Below, in pieces: positions 39,283 through 52,561 of a stretch of 64,000 nt of DNA. Position numbers and translations under genes: made by a program. The DNA comes from an uncultured Candidatus Saccharibacteria bacterium (GTDB taxonomy: Bacteria > Patescibacteriota > Minisyncoccia > Phycocordibacterales > JAACPR01). The notes below the pieces were generated by a model. The model did no database searches and was not told the DNA's origin. It saw only the letters and a list, made by a program, of their open reading frames with translations. Location of the stretch: the NCBI GenBank assembly GCA_964402215.1, contig CAYOAT010000001.1, positions 70,703-134,702 on the forward strand, given 5' to 3'. Every line of letters begins with the position of its first letter. Within the stretch, counting starts at the first letter, position 1.

Positions 39283-39373
39283 GGAGAGATGGCAGAGTGG
39301 TTGAATGCACCGGTCTTGAAAACCGGAATACTCGAAAGGGTATCGTGAGTTCGAATCTCACTCTCTCCGCCAA
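39283..39373 (+). tRNA. tRNA-Ser (anticodon TGA), encoded CCA
   Basis: acceptor GGAGAGA/TCTCTCC, anticodon stem CCGGT/ACCGG with loop CTTGAAA, long variable arm, T-loop TTCGAAT. Confidence 0.9.
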
Positions 39374-39514
39374 GTCGTGACGGGTTATTTCTGCACGAGA
39401 CACGTCGATACTGTTTATACACAGTGGTTGAAATTTTTATCAAAAGCCTATTCAAAAATTAGTATCACTGAATTTATTTTATTTTGTTTTTTATACCCCC
39501 CCGTCATCATAATT

Positions 39515-40234
39515 TTATTTCTTATCCTCTAGGTATGATTCCATCATAAATCTTATTGTATTATTTATTTTTCCTACGATTTTTACTATATCATTTAAAT
39601 AGTTTTCAGATTTTATTTTCAATAATTTATCGGTGTAGGAACTAACTGCACCATCGCAATAATAAAATCTTGTTGTAGAAACATTATCACCTAAGGAATA
39701 GTAGGCTTTTTGGTTGTAATTGTTCTTAGGCGAATCAAAAAAAGTATTTATAAAACCAGATCTTATTTCCTTTAGAGATTGATCGTAGTGGAAGGTCACA
39801 TTACTTCTAATCCTTGATATATGAGACAAAAAATCATTTTTATTTTCATCATACAAAACATCTAAAACATCATGCCAATCATTTCTTATATCTGATGGTA
39901 ATTTTTTTTCAAAAAGAATAAACGATATTGAGCTAGTAACCTTTTTATTCTTTTCAAGAAAAATAAATAATTCACTAGTCAAACTGATAATTAATCTATT
40001 TAAATGATTATTAAGACCGGCCCAAGAGCCAAGATGGTCATTTGGTGGTTCACTATTATCAGAATTCGGTTTTCTATATTCCTTTACTATATATTCAACA
40101 AAAAACAACAAATCTTTCAAATCATTAAAAATCAAACCCAATACCAAAAAGAAATTATCAAAATCACTATCCTTATCCTTCTGTATAATTTTAGATGGAT
40201 TGATACTTTTTAAATTTCCCTCAAATTCTTTCAT
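39515..40234 (-). CDS. hypothetical protein (possible HEPN-like Rx5H motif, unverified)
   Basis: 239 aa, no TM; RIRSNVTFH resembles an Rx4-6H motif; directly downstream of the UvrD-like helicase. Confidence 0.45.
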   Translation of the reverse strand: MKEFEGNLKSINPSKIIQKDKDSDFDNFFLVLGLIFNDLKDLLFFVEYIVKEYRKPNSDNSEPPNDHLGSWAGLNNHLNRLIISLTSELFIFLEKNKKVTSSISFILFEKKLPSDIRNDWHDVLDVLYDENKNDFLSHISRIRSNVTFHYDQSLKEIRSGFINTFFDSPKNNYNQKAYYSLGDNVSTTRFYYCDGAVSSYTDKLLKIKSENYLNDIVKIVGKINNTIRFMMESYLEDKK

Positions 40235-40304
40235 TATTTTTCATTAATATTTTATTAACACATTTTGAATTTGCTCCTCAAGATTTTTTTGCATGACGAT
40301 GAAA

Positions 40305-42218
40305 CTAATTTTGGTCAACCTGTTTTATCGGAATTTTGGAATCTCTAAGAAATCTGGTCAATGTTCTTTTTTCTGTTCCACTATTACTTCCCGAATGTCT
40401 TTGTTGTCCAATTCGTTTATTGCAATAGCTGATAAACAATTTATGTCTTGCTCTTGTCATGGAAACATACAACAACCGTCTTTCATCGCCCTCTTTATCT
40501 CCAGTATTTCGTCCTGGAATATACTCATCTTCTGCACCAACTATGAAGCACACATCAAAAGACAAACCTTTTGCTTGGTGCATAGTGAGTATATTAACAG
40601 CATTTTCTTTTGTTTCTTGTTCGATATATTCTGACGAAGTGCTTACTATTTTAATTAAACCTTCGAGATCAGCTTTTTCTTGACTCTCCAAAATGCCAAC
40701 AAAATATTTTTTTACTTGTTCCCTGATCTCTCCTTCACTCATAAATTTATCGACTGTCGCAGTTATCGCTTCAATAGGATTTTGGATTGCTTTGAGTTCC
40801 ACTATTGCCACATTTATTTCGGAAACAAATTTTGCTATTTTTTGTCCAAACTTTTGTAATTCATTCGGAGATTCAACTATTTTTTGTAGAGCCACGCTAA
40901 ATCTTATTCCCCTGCTTTGAGCGTAATTCCATATATTTTTTATAGACTCATCACCCAAGCCGTTTGTTTTATCGACTTGTAATAATGTTCGCCAAGCTAA
41001 ACAATCGTTTTGATCAACTAGCAAACGAATAATTGATAAAACAATTCTATACTCATTATTGCTTTCTAGCTCGGAATCAGTCGTCAAAGACACATCAACG
41101 CTTTGCTTTTTCAGGGCTTCAATAATTGGCTTAGACAATGAGCCATTACGGTCGCTTCTTAATAAAATTGTGATTTGATCTGGCTTAATATCTTTGGCAA
41201 TCAAGCTTTTTATTTTTTTAGCTATGATTTCAGCTTCATGGTTTTGATCTTTAAATCCAATTATCAAAACCTCACCGTCTTCCGATTGGTCTTTCGGGCG
41301 TGTTGGCTTCGGTAATCGTTTAGGATCGAGACTGGCAACAAATTCAGCTGAATGTAAAATGTTTTTATCACAACGAAAACATATTTCTAACGCCAATTTT
41401 TTGGAATCTTGATATATCTGTTCAAAATTTCTTATACCTTCGGGGGTTGCGAAACGGAAGCCGTAGATACTTTGGTCATCATCTCCCGCAACAAATAATT
41501 CCGCACCTCGTTTTGCTAACTCGTTGACTATCGCAAGGTCGCAAGCGTTTAGGTCTTGATATTCATCAATCAAGATATGCTTATATTCTTTGTCCAATTG
41601 GAAATCTCTGCTTTGGTTTAACTGCTTTTTCAGTTGATAAACAAGTTCTGCTCTCAATGTTTCGCCATATTGATCTTTGTGGCTTCGCCACGCACCAAGA
41701 AAGGAGGGGTTTGGAAATTGTTGCTCCCAGCCAATTTCATCAATTCTCAAAGTTTCCCAGTCAGTTGAAAGCTGGTTGATCAAGTTTTGGACATCGCCAA
41801 TTTCTTTGAGGCTTAGAACTTTTTTTAAATCCTCTTGGATAATATATCTTTCTTCCCAGTCATCGGCTATTCTGATTGGTCTTGGCAATGTATCAATTCT
41901 GCTTGAATTATGAAGAATTTGTCTCAACGCAAAGGAGTGAAGCGTTGATACTTGAGGAATTGTTTTTCCTAAAGGTTCTAAAACTTTCTTGATTTCATCT
42001 TTCAGTTGAGCGGCGGCTAAACGGGTAAATGTAAGCAAAAGAATTGATTCTGGGTCAACATTATGTTGGAGAATTAAAGAAAGTACACGCCGAGTAAGCG
42101 TTTTTGTTTTACCCGTTCCTGGTCCAGCAAGTAATCTTGCATGACTGCCAATGTGGTCAATCGCTTCGATTTGATCGCTTGTAGCGTCGCCGTGAATTGT
42201 TGTTTTTATATCGTCCAT
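40305..42218 (-). CDS. UvrD/Rep/PcrA-family SF1 DNA helicase
   Basis: Walker A AGPGTGKTKT, motif II ILIDEYQDLN, GDDDQSIYGFR, C-terminal QAKGLSFDVCFIVG and VSMTRAR. Confidence 0.9.
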   Translation of the reverse strand: MDDIKTTIHGDATSDQIEAIDHIGSHARLLAGPGTGKTKTLTRRVLSLILQHNVDPESILLLTFTRLAAAQLKDEIKKVLEPLGKTIPQVSTLHSFALRQILHNSSRIDTLPRPIRIADDWEERYIIQEDLKKVLSLKEIGDVQNLINQLSTDWETLRIDEIGWEQQFPNPSFLGAWRSHKDQYGETLRAELVYQLKKQLNQSRDFQLDKEYKHILIDEYQDLNACDLAIVNELAKRGAELFVAGDDDQSIYGFRFATPEGIRNFEQIYQDSKKLALEICFRCDKNILHSAEFVASLDPKRLPKPTRPKDQSEDGEVLIIGFKDQNHEAEIIAKKIKSLIAKDIKPDQITILLRSDRNGSLSKPIIEALKKQSVDVSLTTDSELESNNEYRIVLSIIRLLVDQNDCLAWRTLLQVDKTNGLGDESIKNIWNYAQSRGIRFSVALQKIVESPNELQKFGQKIAKFVSEINVAIVELKAIQNPIEAITATVDKFMSEGEIREQVKKYFVGILESQEKADLEGLIKIVSTSSEYIEQETKENAVNILTMHQAKGLSFDVCFIVGAEDEYIPGRNTGDKEGDERRLLYVSMTRARHKLFISYCNKRIGQQRHSGSNSGTEKRTLTRFLRDSKIPIKQVDQN

Positions 42219-42334
42219 ATATTTATATTATACCATATTTAAGCACAAAAAGCCATAAGCAATGAGCTAAAATGTGCTTATTATTAGCCACGTAATTGGC
42301 TTTATTTGTTATACTTGACAAAAGTTGTTTTTAT

Positions 42335-43708
42335 TTAAGATTTCAACGAAATCTTCTTATCACTCAACATAATCTCACTCTTAAAACACCCTAGTAATTC
42401 CCTCTTTTCCAAGGCGGAGCCGTCTCTCAAAATGTATTTAGCATAATTTCTGATATCGATATCGCTAACAATAATTTTTTCTTTCGTTCCTAAAATTATC
42501 TGTTGAAACTTTTTAAATTTCTCAACGTCAGTTTTGATTTTTTCTTTGATCTTAATTTCACTAATATCAATTTGATCTAGTAATTCTTCAAATTGAACAA
42601 TTAGATCTTTTTCTTCAATATAGCCACACGGACAGTTTTTATCTTTATTCTTGGTACATCCATAATAAACGTAGCGATGAACATTTCCATTTTTCTGTCT
42701 TTTAAATTTTTCATCTGCTGATATACCAGATCCACACAATCCGCAATACATTAGTTTAGTGAAAGCGAATTCTTTATTTTCAATTCTTATAAAACTACTC
42801 TTGATCTGACTCTGTACCAAATCAAATAATTCTTTAGTGATAATTGGTTCGTGTTTTCCTTTGTACCAGTTTCCGCTTTTCTTTGGATATTCAAATTCAC
42901 CATAATAAAAATGGTTGTTGAGGATTGTAAAAATATTACCGAGACTAATATGTTTCTTGCCACAAACGGTTCTAAAGTTTAATTCAAATTTCAACCAGTT
43001 GTATATTTTCTTTCCGCTCCAATGTTCGTGTGCAACTTTCTCAAACATTTTTTTAATAGTTGGTGCTCTTTCTGAATCAATATAACACTGACATTTTCTA
43101 TCTGTCCTTTTTTCTTTCAAATAACCAGTCGGTGCAGGACCTGGCCACAAACCCATCTCAACTCTGGTGCGAAGTCCCCTTTTAACGTTGATACTTTTGT
43201 TGTCATTTTCTAATTTAGCTTGGGAACACAAAATCATTAATAGAAATTTTTCATTCGGTGAATTCTTAAAAGTCTGACCATAAGTTCTGATCTCTTGAAG
43301 CTTTGACTCATCCATCAAATCAACTAGCGACCCCAAGTCTCCTGCATTTCTAGATAATCTATCTGGTGCCCAGGTTAATATGCCATTAAAACGTCCAGAA
43401 TCGATATCAGACAGTATTTCCTTGAAGACTGGTCTCTGACCGGAATCTTTAGCTGAATGTGCCTCACGTCTTATTTCAACGATTTCCAGACTCTCTCTTT
43501 CAGCTATTTGCAACATCTCTTTAACTTGTGAATCAATTGATAATATTTGCCGTTCTTCAGCTTCAGTTGATTTACGAGCGTATAGAACATACTTAACTGG
43601 AACAGCTTGAACGACCTTCATATCACCAATTAATCCAACATTTGTCTTTGTCTCCATACAACCATTAATGACAGAACCGTTGGTTTTGCTAAGCGAAGTT
43701 GTCGACAA
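42335..43708 (-). CDS. large serine recombinase (resolvase domain + recombinase domain + zinc ribbon)
   Basis: catalytic YARKSTEAEE (Ser) N-terminal domain, recombinase domain, Cys4 ribbon CGLCG...CPCG; start probably at an internal Met. Confidence 0.9.
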   Translation of the reverse strand: MSTTSLSKTNGSVINGCMETKTNVGLIGDMKVVQAVPVKYVLYARKSTEAEERQILSIDSQVKEMLQIAERESLEIVEIRREAHSAKDSGQRPVFKEILSDIDSGRFNGILTWAPDRLSRNAGDLGSLVDLMDESKLQEIRTYGQTFKNSPNEKFLLMILCSQAKLENDNKSINVKRGLRTRVEMGLWPGPAPTGYLKEKRTDRKCQCYIDSERAPTIKKMFEKVAHEHWSGKKIYNWLKFELNFRTVCGKKHISLGNIFTILNNHFYYGEFEYPKKSGNWYKGKHEPIITKELFDLVQSQIKSSFIRIENKEFAFTKLMYCGLCGSGISADEKFKRQKNGNVHRYVYYGCTKNKDKNCPCGYIEEKDLIVQFEELLDQIDISEIKIKEKIKTDVEKFKKFQQIILGTKEKIIVSDIDIRNYAKYILRDGSALEKRELLGCFKSEIMLSDKKISLKS

Positions 43709-43763
43709 CGTGTTGGCAAGAATTCTTAGCGAAACAATAAAATCGCGATATTATACTAAACAC

Positions 43764-44972
43764 ATGGAAATATTAATTTTTGGCGGAATAGCTGTCTTTA
43801 TGATAATAGGATTTATCTCTTGGATAATGGAGATAAATGAAAATTCAAAAAAATATTTGGATTTAAAACCAAAACTAGATTCTCTAGAAAAAGATCGCCA
43901 AGATCATCTAACGAAAGTTAAAAAATTAGAGGAAACAACTGAAATAGTTAAAAGAGATTTACATAAAATTGCTGAACAAAAATCAATGGGTTTTCCTTGG
44001 TTGGCAGAAGCTTACGCAGAATATTTTTCTTTACGTGATTTAATGGTAGAAAAATATTTGGAAAACAAAAGACATCCGGCATATACAGCCGCAGAAGCAG
44101 TAAGAGAAATTAAAAAAGAGAAAAAGAAACTCCTAAAAGAAAATAAAATTATTTCTTATAAGATAAATTATTTTGAGAAGTTATTCCCATGGCTGAGTGA
44201 ACTTATAGCGGAAAATGAGCAGGAAGATATACCAGTAATGATAGACGACGATCAAATCGAAGATAATGATGACAGAGTTAAAAATTATTTAACACAAGAT
44301 GAATATAGAAAGTTGCCATCAGTAGAAAGAAATCAAAAAGCGCTGGACAGATATTTACAAAATAGAAATAAATCCAAATGGGCTATTGGTAGAGATTATG
44401 AAATGTACGTGGGACATCTTTATGCACAGGATGGTTACATTATTGAATATAAAGGAATAATTGATGGTTTTGATGATTTGGGCAGGGATATAATTGCAAA
44501 GAAAAATGGTGAGATCTGCATAATTCAATGTAAATATTGGGCGCAATATAAAGATATTCATGAAAAACACGTATTTCAATTATTCGGAACCACAATGGAA
44601 TATTGGCTGAAAAATTTTGTTAGTAAGGGCACTAAAAATAATTTTTCTGAGTTTTCAAGATTTTTGGATGAAGAAAAAATTAGACCAATATTTTTTACTT
44701 CCACAACATTATCAGAAAGAGCTAAGGAAATGGCGAAAGCCTTAAGCGTTGAGGTTATCGAAAGTAAACCAATTTCTGATTTTCCAAGAATTAAGTGTAA
44801 TATCAATGTCGATGAATTTGGAAAAGAAACAAAAATTTATCACCTACCGATGGATCAACAATATGACCGTACAATTATAGGAAATAAAAAGGGTGAATTC
44901 TATGCTTATACAGTTAAAGAAGCTGAGGGCGCTGGATTTAGAAGGGCTTTTAAACACAAGTTTAGTAAATAA
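43764..44972 (+). CDS. membrane-anchored coiled-coil protein with C-terminal Mrr-like (PD-(D/E)xK) restriction endonuclease domain
   Basis: N-terminal TM, long charged coiled coil, Mrr_cat-like core GFDDLGRDIIAKKNGEICIIQCKYW and C-terminal YHLPMDQQYDRT...AGFRRA; start set at the internal Met that avoids overlap with the recombinase. Confidence 0.7.
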   Translation: MEILIFGGIAVFMIIGFISWIMEINENSKKYLDLKPKLDSLEKDRQDHLTKVKKLEETTEIVKRDLHKIAEQKSMGFPWLAEAYAEYFSLRDLMVEKYLENKRHPAYTAAEAVREIKKEKKKLLKENKIISYKINYFEKLFPWLSELIAENEQEDIPVMIDDDQIEDNDDRVKNYLTQDEYRKLPSVERNQKALDRYLQNRNKSKWAIGRDYEMYVGHLYAQDGYIIEYKGIIDGFDDLGRDIIAKKNGEICIIQCKYWAQYKDIHEKHVFQLFGTTMEYWLKNFVSKGTKNNFSEFSRFLDEEKIRPIFFTSTTLSERAKEMAKALSVEVIESKPISDFPRIKCNINVDEFGKETKIYHLPMDQQYDRTIIGNKKGEFYAYTVKEAEGAGFRRAFKHKFSK

Positions 44973-45142
44973 TTTAGTAATATTCCGTCGACGAAATTTC
45001 GACAGTTTCGTTTAATAAAAATTATTCCAAATATAACGATCTCTTGAGACAAGTTAAAGATTTACTATCAGAAAAAGGAATCAAAGATATTAGTCTACTA
45101 GACGTTCACTCCTTCGTCTGGATGATCTATAATTTTAGGTAA

Positions 45143-45592
45143 TTAACGGTTGTCTGATTCAGAAGGTTTTTCTTCAACCCATCCCTCAAGGGAATTGCCA
45201 CCATTTTTTTCAATCTCTTCATCTCTCTCAACATCCTCTTTTCGGCTGTATATTTTAACTTCTATAGCATCAATTTTTTCCTTCCCCATATCTTCCCAGA
45301 AATTCTTTGGTCTCGGTCTCATATATTCTTTTTTATGATTATCAAGCCAATATCTATATGCTCTGGGTTTTCCGATTTTTATATCCGTGATTAACTTACT
45401 TTCTGCCAGATCATTTATGGATTCCACTCCGAGTTTTTTGGCCTCATCTACATTTTTAGAAAATCTTTTCTCATTTTCCATCCATCTATAAACAGTCTGT
45501 CTTGATAAACCAACACGTTCACAGGCCACAGAAATGTTCGCTGTTTTTGCCAATTCTTCTATGAATGTTTTTTCTAATGACTTCTTCTTCAT
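45143..45592 (-). CDS. HTH protein resembling phage terminase small subunit / transposase-type HTH
   Basis: N-terminal HTH ISVACERVGLSRQTVYRWM; translationally coupled to upstream ParB-MTase gene. Confidence 0.5.
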   Translation of the reverse strand: MKKKSLEKTFIEELAKTANISVACERVGLSRQTVYRWMENEKRFSKNVDEAKKLGVESINDLAESKLITDIKIGKPRAYRYWLDNHKKEYMRPRPKNFWEDMGKEKIDAIEVKIYSRKEDVERDEEIEKNGGNSLEGWVEEKPSESDNR

Positions 45593-46863
45593 ATACTTTC
45601 AACCTTGGCTTTCTGACCCGTTAATTTTTCATATCTTGCAATAATGAGATCACAATATATTGGTTCTAGCTCGACCAAATAAGCTTTTCTTTTTAGTTTT
45701 TCACAAGCAATCAATAGACTTCCAGATCCACCAAAAGAATCTAGAATAATATCACCAGGTTTAGTACATCGCCTTATCGCTTTTTCGTATAGATCAACAG
45801 GTTTCTGGGTGGCATGTTCCATTTCCTTTCCAGAAACTCTTTTCGAAGTCCAAATATTTATATCATCGATAGCTTTGTTTCCACTTCCAACATTTACATT
45901 CATGATTTCATTCTGGCCAAATTCTTTTTTCGATAAATAAGGCTTTCCGAGAGTTCCATAAATACATGGTTCATAACATTTTGAGAAAGCCACTTGAGGT
46001 GTTTCATTTTGTGCGTTTTTTATCCATAAACAGACTCGGCGATTTGTAATACCAAGTTCTCGGTAAAGAGACTGTATGATCCAAATCTGTTGTTCTGTAT
46101 TCCAATAAAATATATGGCTATCTGGCTTAGTGAACAATAGAGCAGTTGAGATATTTTTTCTCAAAAATTCTATGTATTCTTTTTCGGTTCTATCGTCATT
46201 AACATTTCCTCCGTAATCTTTCTTCCCGCCGACTCCTTTATTGTATTTAATCTTTAAATTGTAGATTGGGTCAGAAAATATAGTATCCGCTTTTTCATAA
46301 CCAAATAATCTACTCAGTGTTTTTTCTTCATTTGAGCTTCCACAGATCAGGCGGTGGTCACCCAAAGTTACCAGATCTCCAATTTTAGTTTTAGGAACTT
46401 TGATTTTAGCTAATTCTTTTTTCTCGTCCCAATCATCCGTTGAGACACTAATGTCGCCATCCCAGATATTAGCAATATCGTCGAAACTAAAGCCTGAGTC
46501 AGTTAACAAACCAATCTCGAAGTCTTTCAAGGATTCATAATTCCAATCTCCAGTGACAGCATTTGATGTTAGAAGATATCTCTCATATTCTTCTTTAGTT
46601 AGTCTTCGGTTTGGTATTCTGACATCTATCTCTTCATCACCACGACCAAGAATTTGCATCACTTTTAATCTTTGGTGGCCAGCAATTATTTTATTGTCAG
46701 TATCTATTGCAGGGATTTCAACTAAATTAAATCTTTCTAAACTTTTCTTTAAATTTGATTCCTGGTCTGCAGACATCACCCGAGGGTTTTTATTGTATGG
46801 GACCAAATCATTTACTTTGCGCCTGGTCGTGCGCCACATGAGAGGTTCGTTATTGTTTATCAT
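45589..46863 (-). CDS. ParB-like nuclease domain fused to N4/N6 DNA methyltransferase
   Basis: ParB/Srx N-terminus (IIAGHQRLKV), MTase motif IV SDPIYN and motif I LDSFGGSGS. Confidence 0.85.
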   Translation of the reverse strand: MINNNEPLMWRTTRRKVNDLVPYNKNPRVMSADQESNLKKSLERFNLVEIPAIDTDNKIIAGHQRLKVMQILGRGDEEIDVRIPNRRLTKEEYERYLLTSNAVTGDWNYESLKDFEIGLLTDSGFSFDDIANIWDGDISVSTDDWDEKKELAKIKVPKTKIGDLVTLGDHRLICGSSNEEKTLSRLFGYEKADTIFSDPIYNLKIKYNKGVGGKKDYGGNVNDDRTEKEYIEFLRKNISTALLFTKPDSHIFYWNTEQQIWIIQSLYRELGITNRRVCLWIKNAQNETPQVAFSKCYEPCIYGTLGKPYLSKKEFGQNEIMNVNVGSGNKAIDDINIWTSKRVSGKEMEHATQKPVDLYEKAIRRCTKPGDIILDSFGGSGSLLIACEKLKRKAYLVELEPIYCDLIIARYEKLTGQKAKVESI

Positions 46864-46963
46864 AATTATTAAATCCTTTTTATTTCAGTGGATTTGATAA
46901 TTATGATAACTTTTCGGTTGATTCTATGTAACCGATTTTTGACCCCTTTTAAGCGTCCCACAC

Positions 46964-47689
46964 TTATCTGGCCCGTCTCTTGTTTCTATATATAGTTTTT
47001 GATATTTTTCTTGGTGTATAGATATCTGTATCATGTGCATCATTTAGTTTTTTAGAAATTTCAGACGGGCGATAGGTCTTACTTAAATGATAAATTTGTT
47101 TATTTAAATTACTTTGCTCTCTCAATCTAACCTGTTGTAAGTGTGGCGATATCTTTTTATATCTATTTTGAATTATCTTAATCTTACTAAAATTTTTACC
47201 AACATATTCTTCTATATCTCTCCTTGATGCATCTACGCTAACTAATATCGCCACAGGAAAACCAAAATTCTCAACAAAATCATTATTTTTGATTTTCTTT
47301 TTCGCCTGAACCATGTCGATAGAAATAACAGTGTTGATATCGCTTGTAATTATGTATGTGTTGTAAAACAAAATCCAATTAAAAACATTTGGATATGTAT
47401 TCAAAAGACTAATATTATATTTATCTAATAACTCGGAGATTTGATTTTGTAAATCAATTAAATACTTTTGTCTAATACCTTTTAACCACACCTTCGGATA
47501 TTTAAATGAGTTATAACCCAACGTCTCATATCCCATTGGTTTATCGGCAAAACCATTTAGCGGAATTTTAAATTTGCTTCTAAGTAGTCCTAGATCTTTT
47601 TGAAAACCCGATCTTTTTCTTAACCGCTCTAACACTTCAAACAAATGATCTTGCGATTTTGTAAAAATAGAGTGAAATTTCTTGGGCAT
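46964..47689 (-). CDS. hypothetical protein
   Basis: 241 aa, basic C-terminus, no recognisable motif. Confidence 0.4.
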   Translation of the reverse strand: MPKKFHSIFTKSQDHLFEVLERLRKRSGFQKDLGLLRSKFKIPLNGFADKPMGYETLGYNSFKYPKVWLKGIRQKYLIDLQNQISELLDKYNISLLNTYPNVFNWILFYNTYIITSDINTVISIDMVQAKKKIKNNDFVENFGFPVAILVSVDASRRDIEEYVGKNFSKIKIIQNRYKKISPHLQQVRLREQSNLNKQIYHLSKTYRPSEISKKLNDAHDTDIYTPRKISKTIYRNKRRAR

Positions 47690-47891
47690 ATTAGAGTAAT
47701 TATTATACTTTTTCGGATATAATCAAATAAGAATAAATAGACAGAATGCTAATAGTTAAATTTGACAATAAAATTATTTCATAGTCTAAAACGGTCATTT
47801 AATCAGCGCTTACATTTACGGGTCTATAATAAACATAGTGTGTAGCAGGGATAGTCGACCCATTAAAAGACTACACATTCAATAGATAATA

Positions 47892-48176
47892 ATGAGTAAA
47901 TTTATTTCCAGAGTAGAGCTAAATAATGCTACTTTAAATGAGTTTTCTTTGTTTCATGATACGATGTCTGATCTTGGTTTTTCACAAGAACTTCCAATTG
48001 AAAATGGCGATATATACAGATTACCTAGGGCAACCTATCGTATTGTGAAAGATGTTGTTATACGAGATATTTTAAATCTTATTAAACAAGCATTGAAAAC
48101 AATTAATAAAACCGCCGAAATCTTTGTTGTAAAGTACACGGATTCAGATTGGGACGGGCTAGATTTAAAGGAATAG
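47892..48176 (+). CDS. hypothetical small protein
   Basis: 94 aa ORF with plausible spacing from a divergent promoter region. Confidence 0.35.
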   Translation: MSKFISRVELNNATLNEFSLFHDTMSDLGFSQELPIENGDIYRLPRATYRIVKDVVIRDILNLIKQALKTINKTAEIFVVKYTDSDWDGLDLKE

Positions 48177-48296
48177 GTTAAATTGAGCAAAAACGGACTA
48201 ATATAACGCGCTAGATTGGTGGAGAAATTCAGTATACTGTCAAAAATCAGAGTTGTAACCTATGACCAGCGGTAGAACGGCCGTACCTAGCTTATA

Positions 48297-48327
48297 AAAA
48301 CCAGATTCAATTCGAATCTGGTTTTTA
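48297..48327. terminator. bidirectional hairpin terminator
   Basis: AAAAACCAGATTC-aa-TTCGAATCTGGTTTTT. Confidence 0.55.
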
Positions 48328-48365
48328 ATTACTTTTTTGCAATAGAAAAAGTGACAAAAGTGTCA

Positions 48366-48480
48366 CTTTTGTCACTTTTTGCCCTGCTCGAGACTCGTCG
48401 ATTTGGTATACTTAAAAAATCTTAAATAAGCATTACGGGGCTTAACCGATAAAAGTTCTAACACGAGACGGCCCGCCAAG
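48366..48480 (+). repeat. copy A of ~115-bp repeat ending in a tRNA-Ser 3'-end-like sequence (att-like)
   Basis: aligns along its length with 50787..50900 (shared cttttgNcactttttgccNtgctcgagactcgtcgattt ... cattacNgg ... gttctaac.cgag ... ccgccaag); last 10 nt cgccaagtcg equal tRNA-Ser 3' end plus flank. Confidence 0.7.
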
Positions 48481-48534
48481 TCGAGCTAGCACGAGGAACG
48501 TTAAGTATTTAAAATTTTACAATTAAAAGATAAA

Positions 48535-49866
48535 TTAAAACATCAACCATCCTGGCTTAAAGATGATTAAAATTCCAATTATTAACATAATTAATCCACC
48601 AATTAATCTTGAGGCACGAGCATATTTTGTTGTAATCCCTGTCATTTCCAACGTGACCATCGCCACAAAAAAGATAAACAAGTCATCGAGCATAAAAATT
48701 AAAATATAAAGTGAGATATACAAATAATATTGCCAAGTTGGTATCTGATTTAGGGCGAGTAGTTGAGTATAGACTGCGGGTAAACCGGCGGAACAAAGGA
48801 TTTCAACTAAATTGACTGCTGCCGCTAATAAAATAATTCCACCTAAAGCTAGCCACAAACTATTTTGATCAACAACAAGTCTCATCTTCTCAAAAACCTT
48901 TTTTCTTTTCTCGTCACCCGCTACTTTACATCCGCCATCTCTATTAAAAATAAATTCTTTGAGACTATAGCCACCGCCCAAAATCGCGATAATACCTATT
49001 AACATTCTAACCCAAATGACAAATCCTAAAAATAAAATTAGATTCAACCACGCAGACATAAACAAAAAATAAACTAGGGCTGATGACACAATAAAAACAG
49101 AACCCAATAACCACATCCTTTTTCTGTTTTTAATCCCAAGCAATAAACTAATAAGGAACAAGAGGGTCCACATTGCACACGGATTAAAGCCGTCCAAGGC
49201 CCCCATAATTATGGTCACCAAAGGTAGCGAAAAATCCGCCAAACTGATTTCTCCTAATAATGGAATATTGATTTTATTGTCTTGATTCGTTTTTGATTCT
49301 GGAACAGAATTATCAACAACATTATTTTCTTCATGCTCAATGACAGAAGTGGCGGTTTCTAAATTTTCAATAGAAGTATCTAAATCTGGATCAGAATTCG
49401 GCATCACTACATCATCAGAGATTACCAAATTAACAAGGCTGGGTTTCAAACCAACAATATTCGCAACTTGATCTGTACATTTACCCTTCAGACATTCTTC
49501 AAGTTTTTCTTCTATCTCCAAAGAAGTGATTCCACCGGCATAACCAACAAAAGCACTATCACCGATAACCAAAAACGGCACGCCACTAATATCAATATTT
49601 AATGTGCTGGCAACTTCCTTTAAAAGAGATAAATTGTTGTAATTATAATAAATTTCATATTCATAAATATTTAGATTTGGATATTTTTTATTTAAGGACT
49701 CATAAATATATTGCCTTTCTTGCGCACAATGAGGACACCCATCGCCATAAAAAAAATAAAGGTTTATAAAATTTTGAGATTGTGCATAAACATTTGATAA
49801 AAGGAAAAAAAATAAAATCACCGAGAAAACAATGCCAAGAACAAATTTTTTATAAAGAGTCAACAT
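48535..49866 (-). CDS. thioredoxin-fold domain fused to CcdA/DsbD-type transmembrane thiol-disulfide transporter
   Basis: signal/TM, CPHC active site in the N-terminal domain, TM domain with DGFNPCA and LCSAGLP cysteines. Confidence 0.7.
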   Translation of the reverse strand: MLTLYKKFVLGIVFSVILFFFLLSNVYAQSQNFINLYFFYGDGCPHCAQERQYIYESLNKKYPNLNIYEYEIYYNYNNLSLLKEVASTLNIDISGVPFLVIGDSAFVGYAGGITSLEIEEKLEECLKGKCTDQVANIVGLKPSLVNLVISDDVVMPNSDPDLDTSIENLETATSVIEHEENNVVDNSVPESKTNQDNKINIPLLGEISLADFSLPLVTIIMGALDGFNPCAMWTLLFLISLLLGIKNRKRMWLLGSVFIVSSALVYFLFMSAWLNLILFLGFVIWVRMLIGIIAILGGGYSLKEFIFNRDGGCKVAGDEKRKKVFEKMRLVVDQNSLWLALGGIILLAAAVNLVEILCSAGLPAVYTQLLALNQIPTWQYYLYISLYILIFMLDDLFIFFVAMVTLEMTGITTKYARASRLIGGLIMLIIGILIIFKPGWLMF

Positions 49867-49868
49867 AA

Positions 49869-50138
49869 TTATCTATCAAAATTTTTATGAATTATTTCAA
49901 TTAATTTTGTTTTATCAATTTCACCATTTAGTCGTAGAAATTCTACACCTTGTTTGTCTAAAAAAACAAAAGTCGGCAGGATGTTTGTAATATTATATTT
50001 TTCTACCATCTCTTTATCCTGATCAAAATCATAATATTCCGTTATTAATGCAGAATTCTCTGCCTCAATTTCTTTCCACCTTGGTTTCATCACGAGACAT
50101 CCTGGACACCAAACTGCACCAAATTTTAGCACTTTCAT
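49869..50138 (-). CDS. thioredoxin-like protein
   Basis: WCPGC active site, 89 aa. Confidence 0.8.
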   Translation of the reverse strand: MKVLKFGAVWCPGCLVMKPRWKEIEAENSALITEYYDFDQDKEMVEKYNITNILPTFVFLDKQGVEFLRLNGEIDKTKLIEIIHKNFDR

Positions 50139-50150
50139 ATATTAAATATT

Positions 50151-50429
50151 TTAATTTTTAACTATTTTTATCGCCTTCCCATTAATCAATGAATCGGCAA
50201 TCTTTTTATATGCTGAATTAATAATTCTCTGATAGGTGCTTGCCGAGGTCTTCATCTCCTGTGCTGCTGATTCTTGATCTAGATCACTGACATATCTCAA
50301 TCGATATGCCTCAAGTTCTTCATGGGTAAGTTCAATAACAGCAAGGTTTCTCATTGGAATACCCTGTGGTTTAAAATATGTAACGTCAGGTCTAAATTGA
50401 ATTTTTCGACACAATCTTGGTCTTGGCAT
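50151..50429 (-). CDS. DUF134/UPF0251 family putative DNA-binding protein
   Basis: MPRPRLCRKI...FKPQGIP...LTHEELEAYRL...QESAAQEM..S.STYQR...KKIADSLINGKAIKI matches the UPF0251 pattern. Confidence 0.7.
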   Translation of the reverse strand: MPRPRLCRKIQFRPDVTYFKPQGIPMRNLAVIELTHEELEAYRLRYVSDLDQESAAQEMKTSASTYQRIINSAYKKIADSLINGKAIKIVKN

Positions 50430-50495
50430 AACTAAATTATTATAGCAAATAATTAAAATCGCCCCATTTTATAGTAAAGCGATTTCAATTATAAT

Positions 50496-50702
50496 TTACG
50501 AGACTTTGTTTTGCGGAGAAGTTTGTCTTATTCCGTTTCCTCTCCTAATTCCACGTCCTCTTCCACCACCTCTTCCTGGTCCACCTACAGAAACTTGTCT
50601 ATTAGCTACATTTCCCTGTGGTGATTCATCTCCACATGATCCCATTCCACGACCAGTTTTTGGACCTTTTCCATTTGGGCCAGTCCTATCAAAATTTGGC
50701 AT
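50496..50702 (-). CDS. small Gly/Arg-rich protein (DUF5320-like partner of DUF134)
   Basis: MPNFDRTGPNGKGPKTGRGMGSCG N-terminus typical of small proteins found beside DUF134 genes; low complexity so existence is moderate. Confidence 0.5.
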   Translation of the reverse strand: MPNFDRTGPNGKGPKTGRGMGSCGDESPQGNVANRQVSVGGPGRGGGRGRGIRRGNGIRQTSPQNKVS

Positions 50703-50753
50703 ATATATTTATATTATTGCTGTTAATAGATAGTTTATTCACTATCTATTATG

Positions 50754-50782
50754 AGTATATACCCATAACTATCTTGTGTCAA
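50754..50782 (-). promoter_or_regulatory. sigma70-like promoter for the DUF5320/DUF134/thioredoxin operon
   Basis: minus-strand TTGACA (50777-50782), 17-nt spacer, TATACT (50754-50759), ~45 nt upstream of the first ATG. Confidence 0.5.
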
Positions 50783-50786
50783 ACAT

Positions 50787-50900
50787 CTTTTGCCACTTTT
50801 TGCCATGCTCGAGACTCGTCGATTTTGAAAACCAAAATATGCTAAAATAACATTACAGGACCTGGCCGAGAAAGGTTCTAACTCGAGGCTCTCCGCCAAG
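50787..50900 (+). repeat. copy B of ~115-bp repeat; contains degenerate tRNA-Ser-like anticodon-arm and 3'-end sequences
   Basis: aligns with 48366..48480; ends ctctccgccaag, identical to the last 12 nt of tRNA-Ser incl. first C of CCA context; also contains ttgaaaacc like the tRNA-Ser anticodon arm. Confidence 0.7.
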
Positions 50901-50961
50901 AAACATATTTCTAAAATCGAGACTGGAAAAGTCGGGGCGAGGCGCTATAATTTATAATTAT

Positions 50962-51120
50962 GATTAAAACTATATTAATTATTTTCTTAATTTTTATCTC
51001 TGCTGTAATAATTTATTTCATCCTTGGAAACCTTGGTATTGTGCCATTAAGACACTGTGATAGTGCTATGGGCCCATCAGGACAGATATATTTTTGTGAA
51101 TGGTATAGCGGACCACCAAG
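50962..51120 (+). CDS. possible small membrane protein (52 aa), not in ORF track
   Basis: ATG ORF MIKTILIIFLIFISAVIIYFILGNLG... one TM helix; below the ORF-track length cutoff. Confidence 0.25.
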
Positions 51121-51132
51121 TATATATTGACT

Positions 51133-51405
51133 TTACTTTGCCAAACTCAACATAAATTCTTCTAAATCAGTTAATCTTTCAAGAGAAATATCAGTTGTTT
51201 TTTTAAGAAGTTTAATCCCCTGTCTAATTTCCTCCTTATCAATTCCAGCCTGGGATCCAGACTCGTACAGATGCCCCTCAAAAACCATTTTGGCTTTTTC
51301 ACGATCATTATTACTCCAGTCATGTGAAGACAAAAAAACCAAAACTCTTTCTTTAAATTCCGTTTCAGATACTATTGGTTTTGAACTACTCCAAAATAAT
51401 CCCAT
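51133..51405 (-). CDS. hypothetical protein
   Basis: 90 aa, no motif recognised. Confidence 0.4.
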   Translation of the reverse strand: MGLFWSSSKPIVSETEFKERVLVFLSSHDWSNNDREKAKMVFEGHLYESGSQAGIDKEEIRQGIKLLKKTTDISLERLTDLEEFMLSLAK

Positions 51406-51514: not shown

Positions 51515-52561
51515 TTGATAAAGATGCTAAAATTAGGACAAATGATATTTTTTATACTTAATTCAATATTGGCGCTTGTTGGAGTTTATATTTCGCGAAT
51601 GATTTTTCTAAAGAAAAAATCATCTGAAAGTGTAGTTTGCTATATCGGCGGCAGCTGTGATGATGTCTTATCAAGTAAATTTTCAAAATTCTTTGGTGTT
51701 GGAATTGATATTTTTGGGATAATTTATTACTCCGTTTTATTTTTAGGATATCTTTATCTATCTATATTTAAACCTATGCCTGAAATTATCTTTGGTTTGT
51801 TTGTTATGGCCTTTATTGGTTTCTCTTTCTCTCTTTACTTGGTTTTTGTCCAAGCTTTGTATTTGAAAAAATGGTGTCTCAATTGTTTTTCTTCAGCCAT
51901 AAATTCAGTAATAATTTTTATTCTCGCATCAATTTCTTTTTCTGATTATTTTGGTGTCGTGGGAGTTTATCTTGCAGAAATGGTTAATACACTAAGCCTT
52001 GTTCATTTAATTGGAGTGGCAATAGGTGTCAGTGCTGCAACAATCGGTGGGTTTATGATTATTAATTTTTTGAAAGATTTTAAAATTGACAGTCATGAAG
52101 ATAGAAAATTAACAATTTTAGATCAAATCGTTTGGTTGGCGGTGGCTACCCTTCTCGTAGTTAATTTATGCTATTACATAATAGATCCTGAACTTTATTT
52201 TGGTTCATCACAATTTCTGTCGCAATTAGTCATTTTCATTGTTTTAATTATTAACAATGCTTTTCTAAGTCTCTATATTAATCCAAAACTTATTGGTATT
52301 AGAATTGATATGAAATCAATTAATGTCTTTAGAACATTTTGGCTTCGCCAGTGCGCACTAGCGATGGGTGTAATTTCTATTATTTCTTGGTATACAATCC
52401 TTTTTGTTTCCTTCTTTGCAAAAATAACCGACGACAGTATCATAAATGTCATCAGTTATTATGTTGCCATTACAATAATGGCAGTAATTGTAAGTCAGCT
52501 AGCTATCCTTCTTGTTGATAAAATAAAAATTACAAGCGATAATACATATAAGTTTAAATAA
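51515..52561 (+). CDS. vitamin K epoxide reductase (VKOR) domain membrane protein with C-terminal multi-TM extension
   Basis: loop cysteines CYIGGSCDDV...SKFSKFFGV and TM active site WCLNC. Confidence 0.7.
   Translation: MIKMLKLGQMIFFILNSILALVGVYISRMIFLKKKSSESVVCYIGGSCDDVLSSKFSKFFGVGIDIFGIIYYSVLFLGYLYLSIFKPMPEIIFGLFVMAFIGFSFSLYLVFVQALYLKKWCLNCFSSAINSVIIFILASISFSDYFGVVGVYLAEMVNTLSLVHLIGVAIGVSAATIGGFMIINFLKDFKIDSHEDRKLTILDQIVWLAVATLLVVNLCYYIIDPELYFGSSQFLSQLVIFIVLIINNAFLSLYINPKLIGIRIDMKSINVFRTFWLRQCALAMGVISIISWYTILFVSFFAKITDDSIINVISYYVAITIMAVIVSQLAILLVDKIKITSDNTYKFK

Follow-up and report, generated by a model that had tools for sequence, protein, structure and literature searches.

A probable composite island at the 3′ end of tRNA-Ser(TGA) points to a family of tRNA-targeting serine recombinase elements in Patescibacteria

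Introduction

Patescibacteria (the candidate phyla radiation, CPR) combine tiny genomes with a scarcity of CRISPR systems, and their mobile elements are little known. Here we describe an island that lies directly downstream of a tRNA-Ser(TGA) gene in an uncultured Candidatus Saccharibacteria bacterium (GCA_964402215.1, contig CAYOAT010000001.1, positions 70,703 to 134,702 of the forward strand). This whole stretch of 64,000 nt is called the window, and all coordinates count from its first nucleotide. The two apparent parts of the island are named E1, which encodes a large serine recombinase (LSR), and E2, which adjoins it on the right.

Serine integrases of the phiC31, Bxb1 and A118 type usually enter protein-coding genes, with one site per phage, and their att sites are short, with a 2-nt crossover and imperfect dyad symmetry, so that integration leaves hybrid attL and attR sites. 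Phage satellites such as the phage-inducible chromosomal islands (PICI), the P4-like elements and the PICI-like elements (PLE) are 10–15 kb long and carry an integrase (an LSR in PLE), a repressor, a homologue of the terminase small subunit (TerS) that redirects packaging, and bays of anti-phage genes. Virion-encapsidated integrative mobilisable elements (VEIMEs) have been cited alongside phage satellites with defence hotspots (PMC9618062). The tycheposons of Prochlorococcus integrate at tRNA genes, tRNA-Ser(tga) among them; 910 of 937 have tyrosine recombinases and a minority have an LSR (bioRxiv 10.1101/2020.12.28.424599). Judged by analogy, the closest precedent for the present island is the ssrA islands of Dehalococcoides. 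Their recombinase DsiB, an LSR of the CcrB family, integrates them in the T-loop/3′ end of the tmRNA gene with a 20-bp repeat, and they include tandem islands, integrase-less islands that are mobilisable in cis, a conserved non-target motif beside the repeat and a ParB-domain gene (PMC3146451).

Results

Empty and half-empty sites delimit the insertion

The integration target, tRNA-Ser(tga), occupies 39283–39372 on the forward strand (ARAGORN; Rfam 64.8 bits). To its left are housekeeping genes, namely RuvX, a tRNA-binding protein, a PilM-like cluster and ribosomal protein L19. A preliminary description of the locus, made from the letters and their open reading frames (ORFs), had put a switch from housekeeping to other genes immediately 3′ of this tRNA, and the mapped end of the gene at 39372 agrees with that. 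Base composition is no marker of the border, as GC is 0.28–0.37 inside the island and outside alike.

Two syntenic relatives (among the related loci, given here as L numbers) were reached through homologues of the chromosomal VKOR gene of the window (51515–52561). In L209, whose VKOR is 68% identical to that of the window, the site is empty: RuvX, tRNA-Ser(tga), two successive orf90 genes and VKOR follow one another, with 110 nt between the tRNA and the first orf90. All four cargo genes of E2 are absent from L209. Its tRNA-Ser gene ends in ...CTCTCTCCGC|ATTGAC, with no encoded CCA. By this comparison, 39369–50894 of the window is an insertion. In L207, the tRNA reads into tRNA-Ser...CTCTCTCCGCCA|AGACAAGCTAGCACGAG, the right part of which matches 48463–48500 of the window, and the sequence after the tRNA is identical at 19 of 21 nt to that on the right of the repeat core near 48480. 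This arm is followed by a 4.8-kb insert whose DUF134 gene is 84% identical to the copy in the 48.5–50.9 kb segment of the window; the LSR and all other E1 genes are missing from L207. E1 is therefore an insertion into a junction of tRNA-Ser with E2-type DNA such as L207 retains. The island is thus absent from the same locus in related genomes, being missing altogether from L209 and lacking E1 in L207.

Both ends of E1 carry the same 11-mer, CCGCCAAGTCG, which occurs exactly twice in the window (39367–39377 and 48473–48483; 0.00 expected in 100 dinucleotide-preserving shuffles) and fixes the borders to within its own length. The preliminary description had reported a copy of the tRNA-Ser end and its flank at 48471–48480; the repeat is real, and it lies 3 nt further right, at 48474–48483. 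A third, shorter copy, CCGCCAAG, is found at 50893–50900 (8–11 nt when counted over 50890–50900). In addition, a 19-nt motif, CTGCNCGAGACNCGTCGAT, is present three times in the window (39391, 48384 and 50805; 0.05 expected). The sequences that end at the second and third repeat copies are themselves related: 48366–48483 (block B) and 50780–50900 (block C) are homologous over ~120 nt, with 77% column identity, and both terminate in CCGCCAAG.

Three sites can therefore be laid out by their repeat copies. At site A, tRNA-Ser is followed by the core and a right arm with the 19-nt motif; at site B, a left block with the motif leads into the core and a short right arm; at site C, a left block and the core give way to unrelated DNA. 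Between both 11-mers lies E1, ~39369–48474 (9,106 bp), which encodes the recombinase. Its attL core is CCGCCAAGTCG at 39367–39377 (+), with a likely crossover at CC 39367–39368, or tRNA positions 71–72. The P′ arm, GCCAAGTCGTGAC..., follows at 39369–39409 (+) and contains the 19-nt motif CTGCACGAGACACGTCGAT at 39391–39409. At the other end, a terminator-like bidirectional hairpin with a 14-bp stem (48295–48327; terminator scan) closes the cargo bay of E1 and is followed by its conserved att block, i.e. the P arm and an accessory region, at 48351–48474 (+; nhmmer 123 bits). This block comprises GTCACTTTTGTCAC repeats at ~48359–48375, the 19-nt motif at 48384–48402, and a mimic of a tRNA 3′ half, AGTTCTAACACGAGACGGCCCGCCA, which terminates at the crossover CC, 48473–48474.

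E2 covers ~48475–50894 (~2,420 bp); a P′ arm forms its left end and a full block its right end, and it encodes no recombinase. Its P′ arm is of a short type, GCCAAGTCGAGCTAGCACGAGGAACG (48475–48505, +), shared with L077, L149 and L185. Its block, the outermost attR (50769–50900, +; nhmmer 106 bits), has the 19-nt motif at 50805–50823 and the tRNA mimic GGTTCTAACTCGAGGCTCTCCGCCAAG; homology to block B stops at 50900. In between, on the reverse strand (48535–50702), are genes for a 443-aa CPHC membrane protein, a thioredoxin (49869–50138), a DUF134 protein (50151–50429) and a DUF5320 protein (50496–50702), as assigned by precomputed Pfam calls on an identical JGI contig. The CPHC protein and thioredoxin genes adjoin the chromosomal VKOR, and DsbA-like thiol-oxidoreductase cargo is also present in six related LSR loci. 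Directly to the right of block C, 50901–50935 has the sequence AATCGAGAC, the core of the 19-nt motif, which may be a trace of the arm of a still older element. A hydrophobic 56-aa ORF (MIKTILIIFLIF...; 50962–51132, +) lies between block C and orf90 and has no L209 counterpart.

The hybrid nature of the attL and attR arms is clear from comparisons with L017, L077, L207 and related loci. When the left side of site B (48340–48483) is joined to the right side of site A (39378 onward), the product can be aligned colinearly, across the junction, to the uninterrupted sites of L017 and L077, which is the expected appearance of excised E1. LSR homologues with 74% (L017) and 59% (L055) identity are encoded on the opposite strand 2.6–4.2 kb right of the site, an arrangement shared with the window. 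These comparisons uphold the earlier proposal of integration at the tRNA-Ser 3′ end with a far edge near 48480, and also its expectation that island-free relatives would define the insertion and that an att-like duplication exists. The far border was only partly anticipated: E1 does end near 48480, whereas against a truly empty site the insertion reaches ~50900 and takes in E2 as well.

Together, these results make it very probable that the island is a composite, formed by site-specific integration at the 3′ end of tRNA-Ser(TGA) and made up of E1 and the adjacent E2. E2 would be an older relative, decayed or mobilisable in trans, that was at tRNA-Ser before E1; E1 would then have inserted beside it, giving tandem accretion. 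The LSR is the presumed catalyst of the insertion, and this order of the two events is likewise our inference. With an apparently intact LSR and a perfect 11-nt core common to its two att ends, E1 may possibly be mobile today.

In JGI 3300020048 the same population is represented by three contigs, which break inside E1 near 39490/39952 and 46876/47089, away from the att sites; micro-heterogeneity or a change in coverage within the island are possible causes of these breaks. An exact-protein look-up found RuvX, the 443-aa protein and the UvrD protein only in JGI 3300020048, except that the 443-aa protein also occurs in one Logan run; no record exists of the LSR and VKOR sequences translated from the listed ORFs, and the look-up yielded no island-free strain. 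Terminal direct repeats, as expected of circular or excised copies, are present in none of the 80 metagenome LSR loci described below.

The crossover point and tRNA mimicry

In the mechanism we propose, the LSR would have recombined the attP site of the element with the end of tRNA-Ser, attP comprising the P arm (the conserved block), the dinucleotide of the crossover and the P′ arm GCCAAGTCGTG...CACGAGACNCGTCGAT. At its end, the P arm has ~25 nt, GGTTCTAAC-N9-C[C/A]GCCA, with the geometry of the T-loop, acceptor strand and CCA end of a tRNA. GGTTC is separated from CCA by 17 nt, as is G53 from C74 in tRNA, and TTAGAAC of the P arm is in register with the T-loop TTCGAAC. Such a mimic may enable a single recombinase family to target many different tRNA genes, of at least eight species.

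The best dyad centre in uninterrupted sites is CC/CA, five nt before the CCA end, with 12 of 18 positions symmetrical in L077 and in site B of the window and 11 of 18 in L017; a score of 12 is reached by ~1% of shuffles. In all five blocks for which both ends are known, this dinucleotide corresponds to positions 71–72 of the target tRNA (CA in three tRNA-Gln elements, CC in two tRNA-Ser blocks). In agreement, attL junctions have the CCA, which is missing from many attR junctions (...C(A/C)GCAAAAA; L156, L033 and L024). A crossover at tRNA positions 71–72 is most likely, being the simplest reading of these junctions, with the exact dinucleotide deduced from the alignments. A crossover at AA after the CCA was also considered and rejected, as its dyad scores just 9–10 of 18, within the null range, and it conflicts with the CCA-less attR junctions and with the empty site.

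With a crossover at 71–72, the element would replace, and itself supply, the discriminator base and an encoded CCA. The discriminator G and the CCA of the tRNA-Ser in the window are thus probably element-derived. The occupied tRNA-Ser encodes CCA (…CCGCCA, 39367–39372), and the empty-site gene of L209 (9110–9125, …CCGCATTG) does not. The element thus appears to turn a CCA-less tRNA gene into a CCA-encoding one. Because the presumed mover is an LSR rather than a tyrosine integrase, the 11-nt repeat is best read as the 2-nt crossover plus 9 nt common to two related element arms. The earlier view of the far border as a repeat of the tRNA-Ser end therefore captures the 11-nt identity, although the border is more than a simple duplication of the tRNA end.

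A conserved att block

A motif scan over one genome per species found the same ~120-nt block architecture in ~25 low-GC metagenome-assembled genomes (MAGs) labelled Paceibacteria, Parcubacteria, Saccharibacteria, Minisyncoccia or Nomurabacteria. The block runs from GTCACTTTTGTCAC repeats through the motif and an A-rich stretch to ...CTTGACC-N5-ACGGTTCTA(A/G)CTCGAG-N3-GCC(C/A)GC(C)A. Where the site is full and uninterrupted (L017, L077 and L087), it continues into GTCGTGCTAG-CACGAGACNCGTCGAT, the sequence that stands 3′ of tRNA-Ser at site A. L055 and L077 come from one MAG; these two contigs begin with the same block and diverge exactly after GCCAA. Five loci have a homologue of the E1 ParB-methyltransferase gene on the left of the block, and three of them also an adjacent TerS-like homologue; the order and strand of LSR, ParB-methyltransferase and TerS around the block are always as in the window.

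The ~90 nt upstream of the tRNA mimic, comprising the GTCACTTTTGTCAC direct repeat, the motif TGCTCGAGACNCGTCGAT and the A-rich stretch, are conserved across Patescibacteria classes. They correspond to 48351–48440 and 50769–50860 of the window and recur in L004, L017, L019, L033, L046, L055, L076–L078, L087, L096, L100–L102, L109 and L113. Within an element, the copies of the 19-nt motif in the block and in the P′ arm seem to vary together (L184 and L161; by eye), which suggests that a common element-encoded protein binds both. We suggest that the GTCAC repeats and the motif are accessory sites for directionality or regulation.

Several other functions for the blocks were considered and rejected. 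No known RNA family matches at the Rfam gathering score in the whole window, and at E<5 the stretch 47690–51140 gives only terminator-like noise. RNAalifold finds no consensus structure on either strand for 32 non-identical block copies, and compensatory pairs seen by eye turned out to be register shifts. A consensus scan for sigma-70 promoters finds none on the forward strand of block B and a weak one (9 of 12) in block C, and the total of such sites equals the shuffle expectation. Over 18 loci, conservation of the 19-nt motif has no clear link to the presence of TerS or of the terminase large subunit (TerL), and a role as TerS (pac) site was dropped.

Elsewhere, two or three att blocks are found in tandem, 0.5–1.3 kb apart and with little or no coding sequence between them (L087 1409–3516, L131 5445–7417, L109 2074–3539 and L182 2172–4315); these are probably stacks of decayed elements. 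A doubtful ARAGORN tRNA-Leu lies between two of the blocks in L087 (1580–1666).

A family of LSR elements at tRNA genes

With an alignment of three LSRs as query, a metagenome scan gave at least 557 confirmed relatives from at least 600 pattern matches. The best 80 of the at least 557 (61–77% identical) were analysed with 10-kb flanks, and all their ORFs were clustered. The same alignment found 62 close LSR relatives and four distant ones (24–25% identical) in IMG/VR, where the single LSR sequence as query gave no match. Relatives of the LSR number more than 600.

The association with tRNA genes is a family trait. In all 28 loci that have a tRNA downstream of the LSR, the first one is on the strand opposite the LSR. 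These targets are tRNA-Ser-gct (7), Gln-ctg (7), Gln-ttg (4), Trp (4), Glu (3), Lys (1), Arg (1) and Phe (1). The P′-arm motif N2-4-CG(T/A)G(C/A)TAG...C(A/T)CGAG is present in the 3′ flank of the tRNA in 21 of the 28 loci, and second, farther tRNAs lack it. On the other side, 22 of 23 matches to the block profile are located upstream of the LSR and on its opposite strand, and two or three copies often stand in tandem. The unit therefore has the order tRNA, P′ arm, cargo, LSR, backbone, cargo, block, and elements seen at both ends are ~8–15 kb long.

In the 80 metagenome loci, the backbone comprises an S24/LexA-type repressor (12 loci; PF00717 7.6e-28), the ParB-methyltransferase (40), the TerS-like protein (42) and TerL (35; 490 aa, phrog_38 2e-81). 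The TerL gene is followed by a small variable gene and then the LSR. The same backbone is found in the 62 IMG/VR loci, with the ParB-methyltransferase in 54, TerS in 49 and TerL, placed after TerS, in 45. Head, capsid, portal and tail genes are absent from the recurrent clusters and from the cargo sampled in ~140 related loci, and no replication module (primase/Rep) was found conserved in the family or present in E1.

The bays that flank the backbone vary and carry mostly defence genes in the relatives: a ThsB-type TIR protein with an 8xMP membrane protein, and DUF5677, in L140; SIR2 (SIR2_2) and a CBASS pair, SMODS with Cap15, in L134; Shedu (SduA_C) in L148; and Schlafen/AlbA_2 in L183. Other bay cargo includes type I restriction-modification, Dcm, reverse transcriptase (RVT_1), SNF2-PLD helicase, DUF2779, metal-resistance and thiol-oxidoreductase genes. 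A defence role of the variable bays is well supported by this gene content. The family is thus one of compact integrative elements that encode terminase and carry defence genes, and by analogy it resembles satellites. Six IMG/VR contigs classed as viral hold two LSR-family copies 10–40 kb apart and are probably host fragments with two elements: 3300014205_009253 (L218/L229), 3300000970_000154 (L224/L232), 3300042286_000458 (L243/L245), 3300032737_000190 (L255/L256), 3300014208_000734 (L228/L249) and 3300009873_002614 (L275/L276).

By its gene content, E1 is a reduced member of this large, Patescibacteria-wide family, with two bays and neither TerL nor repressor. TerL has also been lost in L183. 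The bays of E1 contain a UvrD-like helicase with orf239, a membrane Mrr-like nuclease and two orphans.

Genes of E1

The gene list of the preliminary description (recombinase, helicase, Mrr-like nuclease, ParB-methyltransferase, TerS-like helix-turn-helix (HTH) protein and orphans) was confirmed with Pfam, PHROGs and PADLOC. The LSR, the integrase of E1 (42335–43708, −), is CcrB-like and has Resolvase, Recombinase and Zn_ribbon_recom domains (PF00239 6.2e-19, residues 41–186; PF07508 7.9e-14; PF13408 2.1e-8). Its match in PHROGs is the integrase family phrog_95 (5e-61), and over its full length it is 74% identical to the L017 protein. The motif Y43-A-R-K-S47-T48 is invariant in the three-sequence LSR alignment A2, and S47 is presumably the catalytic serine, as we take from general knowledge of the family. 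In its sequence, the enzyme appears intact. The best NCBIfam match is CcrB (7.7e-32), at 110 bits against a family cutoff of 900, and no second serine recombinase was found in E1 or in the family backbone; the protein is thus not an ortholog of the CcrB/DsiB type.

Two backbone genes lie beyond the LSR. The TerS-like HTH protein (45143–45592, −) matches PF20901 (2.7e-6) and five TerS PHROGs. The fusion of a ParB-like domain with an N6/N4 methyltransferase (45589–46863, −) matches PF01555 (1.3e-27), phrog_498 (1e-81) and the ParB-like phrog_620 (4e-19). The search of phage databases that had been proposed for these two proteins thus returned phage families for both, and their suggested coupling is visible in the coordinates as an ATGA start/stop overlap. 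In relatives, the ParB-methyltransferase occurs without the Mrr-like gene, as part of the mobile backbone, and no cognate restriction enzyme was identified for the E1 methyltransferase.

The slot held in relatives by TerL and the small variable gene is filled in E1 by a gene on the opposite strand (43668–44972, +), which encodes a putative membrane-anchored Mrr-like PD-(D/E)xK nuclease with a C-terminal sunset-like domain. Its Mrr_cat_2 match (4.2e-5) is marginal, at 23.9 bits against a cutoff of 22, the sunset domain falls just short (26.1 bits against 27), and phrog_17577, a restriction endonuclease family, matches at 5e-5; the N-terminal segment is hydrophobic. On the attL side, the bay between the recombinase and attL holds a UvrD/PcrA-like superfamily 1 (SF1) helicase (40305–42218, −; PF00580 3.7e-49, PF13361 6.7e-42). 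Its best PADLOC match is GajB (1.1e-59). GajA models match no E1 protein, and the neighbour of the helicase, orf239, is an unrelated all-helical protein, so the pair is not a Gabija system.

The cargo gene orf239 (39515–40234, −) has no match in Pfam, PHROGs or NCBIfam. R143 and H149 are invariant in its protein family, with the R-x5-H spacing of HEPN domains. About 40 homologues were found, and the four that are named by a source are from Patescibacteria MAGs. In the loci examined (L210–L214), the homologue is the last gene behind type I or MutH/Dcm restriction-modification operons or lies near a reverse transcriptase. The AlphaFold2 model is all-helical (pLDDT 89.9) and has no fold match in the PDB at E<0.3, and one member of the family weakly matches HEPN_Apea. 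On the model and these contexts, orf239 may be a new HEPN-like defence accessory, which we regard as a lead and not as a finding. A fixed two-gene system of UvrD and orf239 was considered and discarded, as a UvrD helicase stands beside an orf239 homologue in none of the contexts examined.

Of the orphans, orf241 (46964–47689, −), upstream of the methyltransferase, has no match in Pfam, PHROGs, PADLOC or NCBIfam and was a singleton on clustering with the 80 loci. On the attR side, orf94 (47892–48176, +) encodes a small phage-type protein with weak YmfI/GhoS-like character (phrog_8894 3e-16; below cutoff, NCBIfam YmfI_phage 4.4e-8 and PF11080 GhoS 5.4e-4). E1 encodes no TerL and no S24 repressor, and Pfam and PHROGs gave no match to capsid, portal, tail or lysis genes in E1 or E2. 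The island had been proposed as a likely home of anti-phage systems. The bays of relatives carry CBASS, Shedu, ThsB-TIR, SIR2 and restriction-modification genes, in line with that proposal, whereas E1 has no complete system by PADLOC; its own cargo may, by analogy, also serve in defence.

Discussion

The island shares several features with the Dehalococcoides ssrA islands: a CcrB-like LSR, a T-loop/acceptor target, a short repeat at the far border with a non-target motif upstream of it, tandem accretion that includes integrase-less islands, ParB-domain and DNA-modification genes in a conserved module, and variable adaptive cargo. In contrast to the single tmRNA target of those islands, the present family uses at least eight kinds of ordinary tRNA genes. 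It also differs by the absence of a second, small serine recombinase (DsiA/CcrA), the cargo bay between LSR and attL, the backbone of TerS/TerL and S24 repressor, the other host phylum and the score of 110 bits against the CcrB cutoff of 900. Like tycheposons, these are small cargo-bearing or satellite-like elements with partial tRNA-like repeats, which stack in tandem beside tRNA genes to form islands. Unlike the family described here, many tycheposons carry replication genes (primase, helicase); their cargo serves mainly nutrient acquisition rather than defence, and no conserved 120-nt att block has been described there. The E1 LSR has the same three-domain architecture as integrases of the phiC31, Bxb1 and A118 type, but here the target class consists of tRNA 3′ ends, a tRNA mimic forms part of the attP arm, and further conserved motifs lie on both sides of the core. 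A tRNA-targeting family of serine recombinases in Patescibacteria was not described in any paper that we found; as coverage of the literature was incomplete, this is no proof of novelty, and the element family is apparently undescribed.

A number of observations weigh against a composite island built by site-specific integration. The same population yielded neither an excised circle nor an exact empty site, and proteins of the nearest empty-site genome are only ~68–85% identical, too distant for a base-by-base check of the right-hand junction. The cargo of E2 is functionally related to the adjacent VKOR, and part of E2 could be old resident DNA. Canonical serine integrases do not recombine attP with attL, and a tandem model needs E1 to enter a hybrid of tRNA and the P′ arm of E2; this would require either a relaxed, Ccr-like choice of site or the arrival of E1 and E2 as one unit. 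The reconstructed attP of E1 itself reaches a dyad symmetry of 9 of 18 or fewer, because its P′ arm has ~10 extra nt, and so the crossover can be placed only somewhere within the 11-nt identity CCGCCAAGTCG. The ~90 nt with GTCAC repeats and the 19-nt motif far exceed what serine recombinases are known to need. Lastly, on the side of the cargo, PADLOC finds in E1 no complete known defence system, only GajB-like and type II methyltransferase matches.

Among other explanations, the one that fares best is that E1 is, or recently was, a helper-dependent phage satellite. TerS-like protein, together with TerL in complete relatives, would redirect packaging into helper capsids; the element would excise on helper infection, and its defence cargo would shield both host and satellite. 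This would refine rather than exclude composite integration at tRNA-Ser. In size, integrase, TerS gene and defence hotspots the family is like PICI, P4 and PLE satellites, with a repressor in relatives only; the elements with both ends known are ~8–15 kb and, as in known satellites, have defence hotspots flanking the backbone. The family has TerS, TerL and an S24 repressor of the SOS-cleavable type, no capsid, portal or tail cluster recurs in the 80 and 62 loci, and the latter 62 are listed as viral in IMG/VR. However, that listing may merely reflect the terminase hallmark genes. Unlike the described satellites, the family keeps TerL and has no capsid, portal or remodelling genes; neither a replication module (primase/Rep) nor a capsid-remodelling gene is conserved, and E1 lacks TerL and the repressor. 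TerS presence does not track conservation of the 19-nt motif. We therefore consider satellite status for E1 possible but rather unlikely. The preliminary description had left a choice between a prophage remnant and a satellite-like island, and of these a satellite-like integrative element fits better, since the family keeps TerS, TerL, the ParB-methyltransferase and an S24 repressor, and structural genes are lacking among the recurrent clusters and sampled cargo of the ~140 loci.

A full temperate phage that has decayed and shed its structural genes is an improbable origin of E1. Phage-type genes are certainly present (TerS-like, ParB-methyltransferase with phrog_498 at 1e-81, YmfI-like orf94 and an LSR of a phage-integrase PHROG), and relatives add TerL and a CI/LexA-like repressor, but none of the ~140 related loci has head, portal or tail genes among recurrent clusters or sampled cargo. 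The recurrence of the same compact backbone at 8–15 kb argues for a stable small-element design and not for independent decay, and the att ends of E1 are both intact.

Still less credence is due to the idea that the ~120-nt blocks are a small RNA gene or a tRNA-like decoy with its own promoter, into which elements inserted on the right. The blocks do have promoter-like features (GTCAC repeats, TATACT/TAAAAT) and a tRNA-like GCCA end, and the L055 block, with an LSR on its right, has a right flank in which no P′ arm can be recognised. Against this, the 32 aligned copies gave no consensus structure on either strand, Rfam gave no match, and the consensus scan found no forward-strand promoter in block B. 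The block is on the ParB-methyltransferase/TerS side in six MAG loci and upstream of the LSR in 22 of 23, and the comparison of the window with L207 puts block B inside the inserted DNA. Finally, that there is no mobile element, only ancestral genes lost in relatives and a coincidental repeat, would suit the unchanged GC but is hardly credible, given chance expectations of 0.00 for the 11-mer and 0.05 for the 19-nt motif, the same ends around homologous recombinases at eight other tRNA species, and relatives that differ exactly at the tRNA end.

The preferred reading, a composite of E1 and E2 integrated at tRNA-Ser, can be extended to a joint proposal, which we put forward tentatively and hold to be rather doubtful as a whole. 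It would combine an undescribed Patescibacteria-wide family that retargets among tRNAs by an attP mimic, with a crossover at 71–72 that rewrites discriminator and CCA; a new type of helper-dependent satellite that keeps TerS/TerL and has no capsid; and the ~90-nt array of GTCAC repeats and a 17–19-nt motif as accessory sites for the direction of recombination or for packaging.

Taken alone, this locus is nothing unusual: a genomic island next to a tRNA gene, with well-defined limits. If LSRs of this family do recognise the shared T-loop/CCA geometry, this would be relevant to integrases as genome-engineering tools, as the target motif is universal and specificity is apparently set by few nucleotides. 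The family can be recognised by its recombinase, att block and neighbouring tRNA, and could thus guide the search for new defence genes in the bays, orf239 and the membrane Mrr-like nuclease being examples. For Patescibacteria, such elements could be a main route by which anti-phage genes are gained and exchanged.

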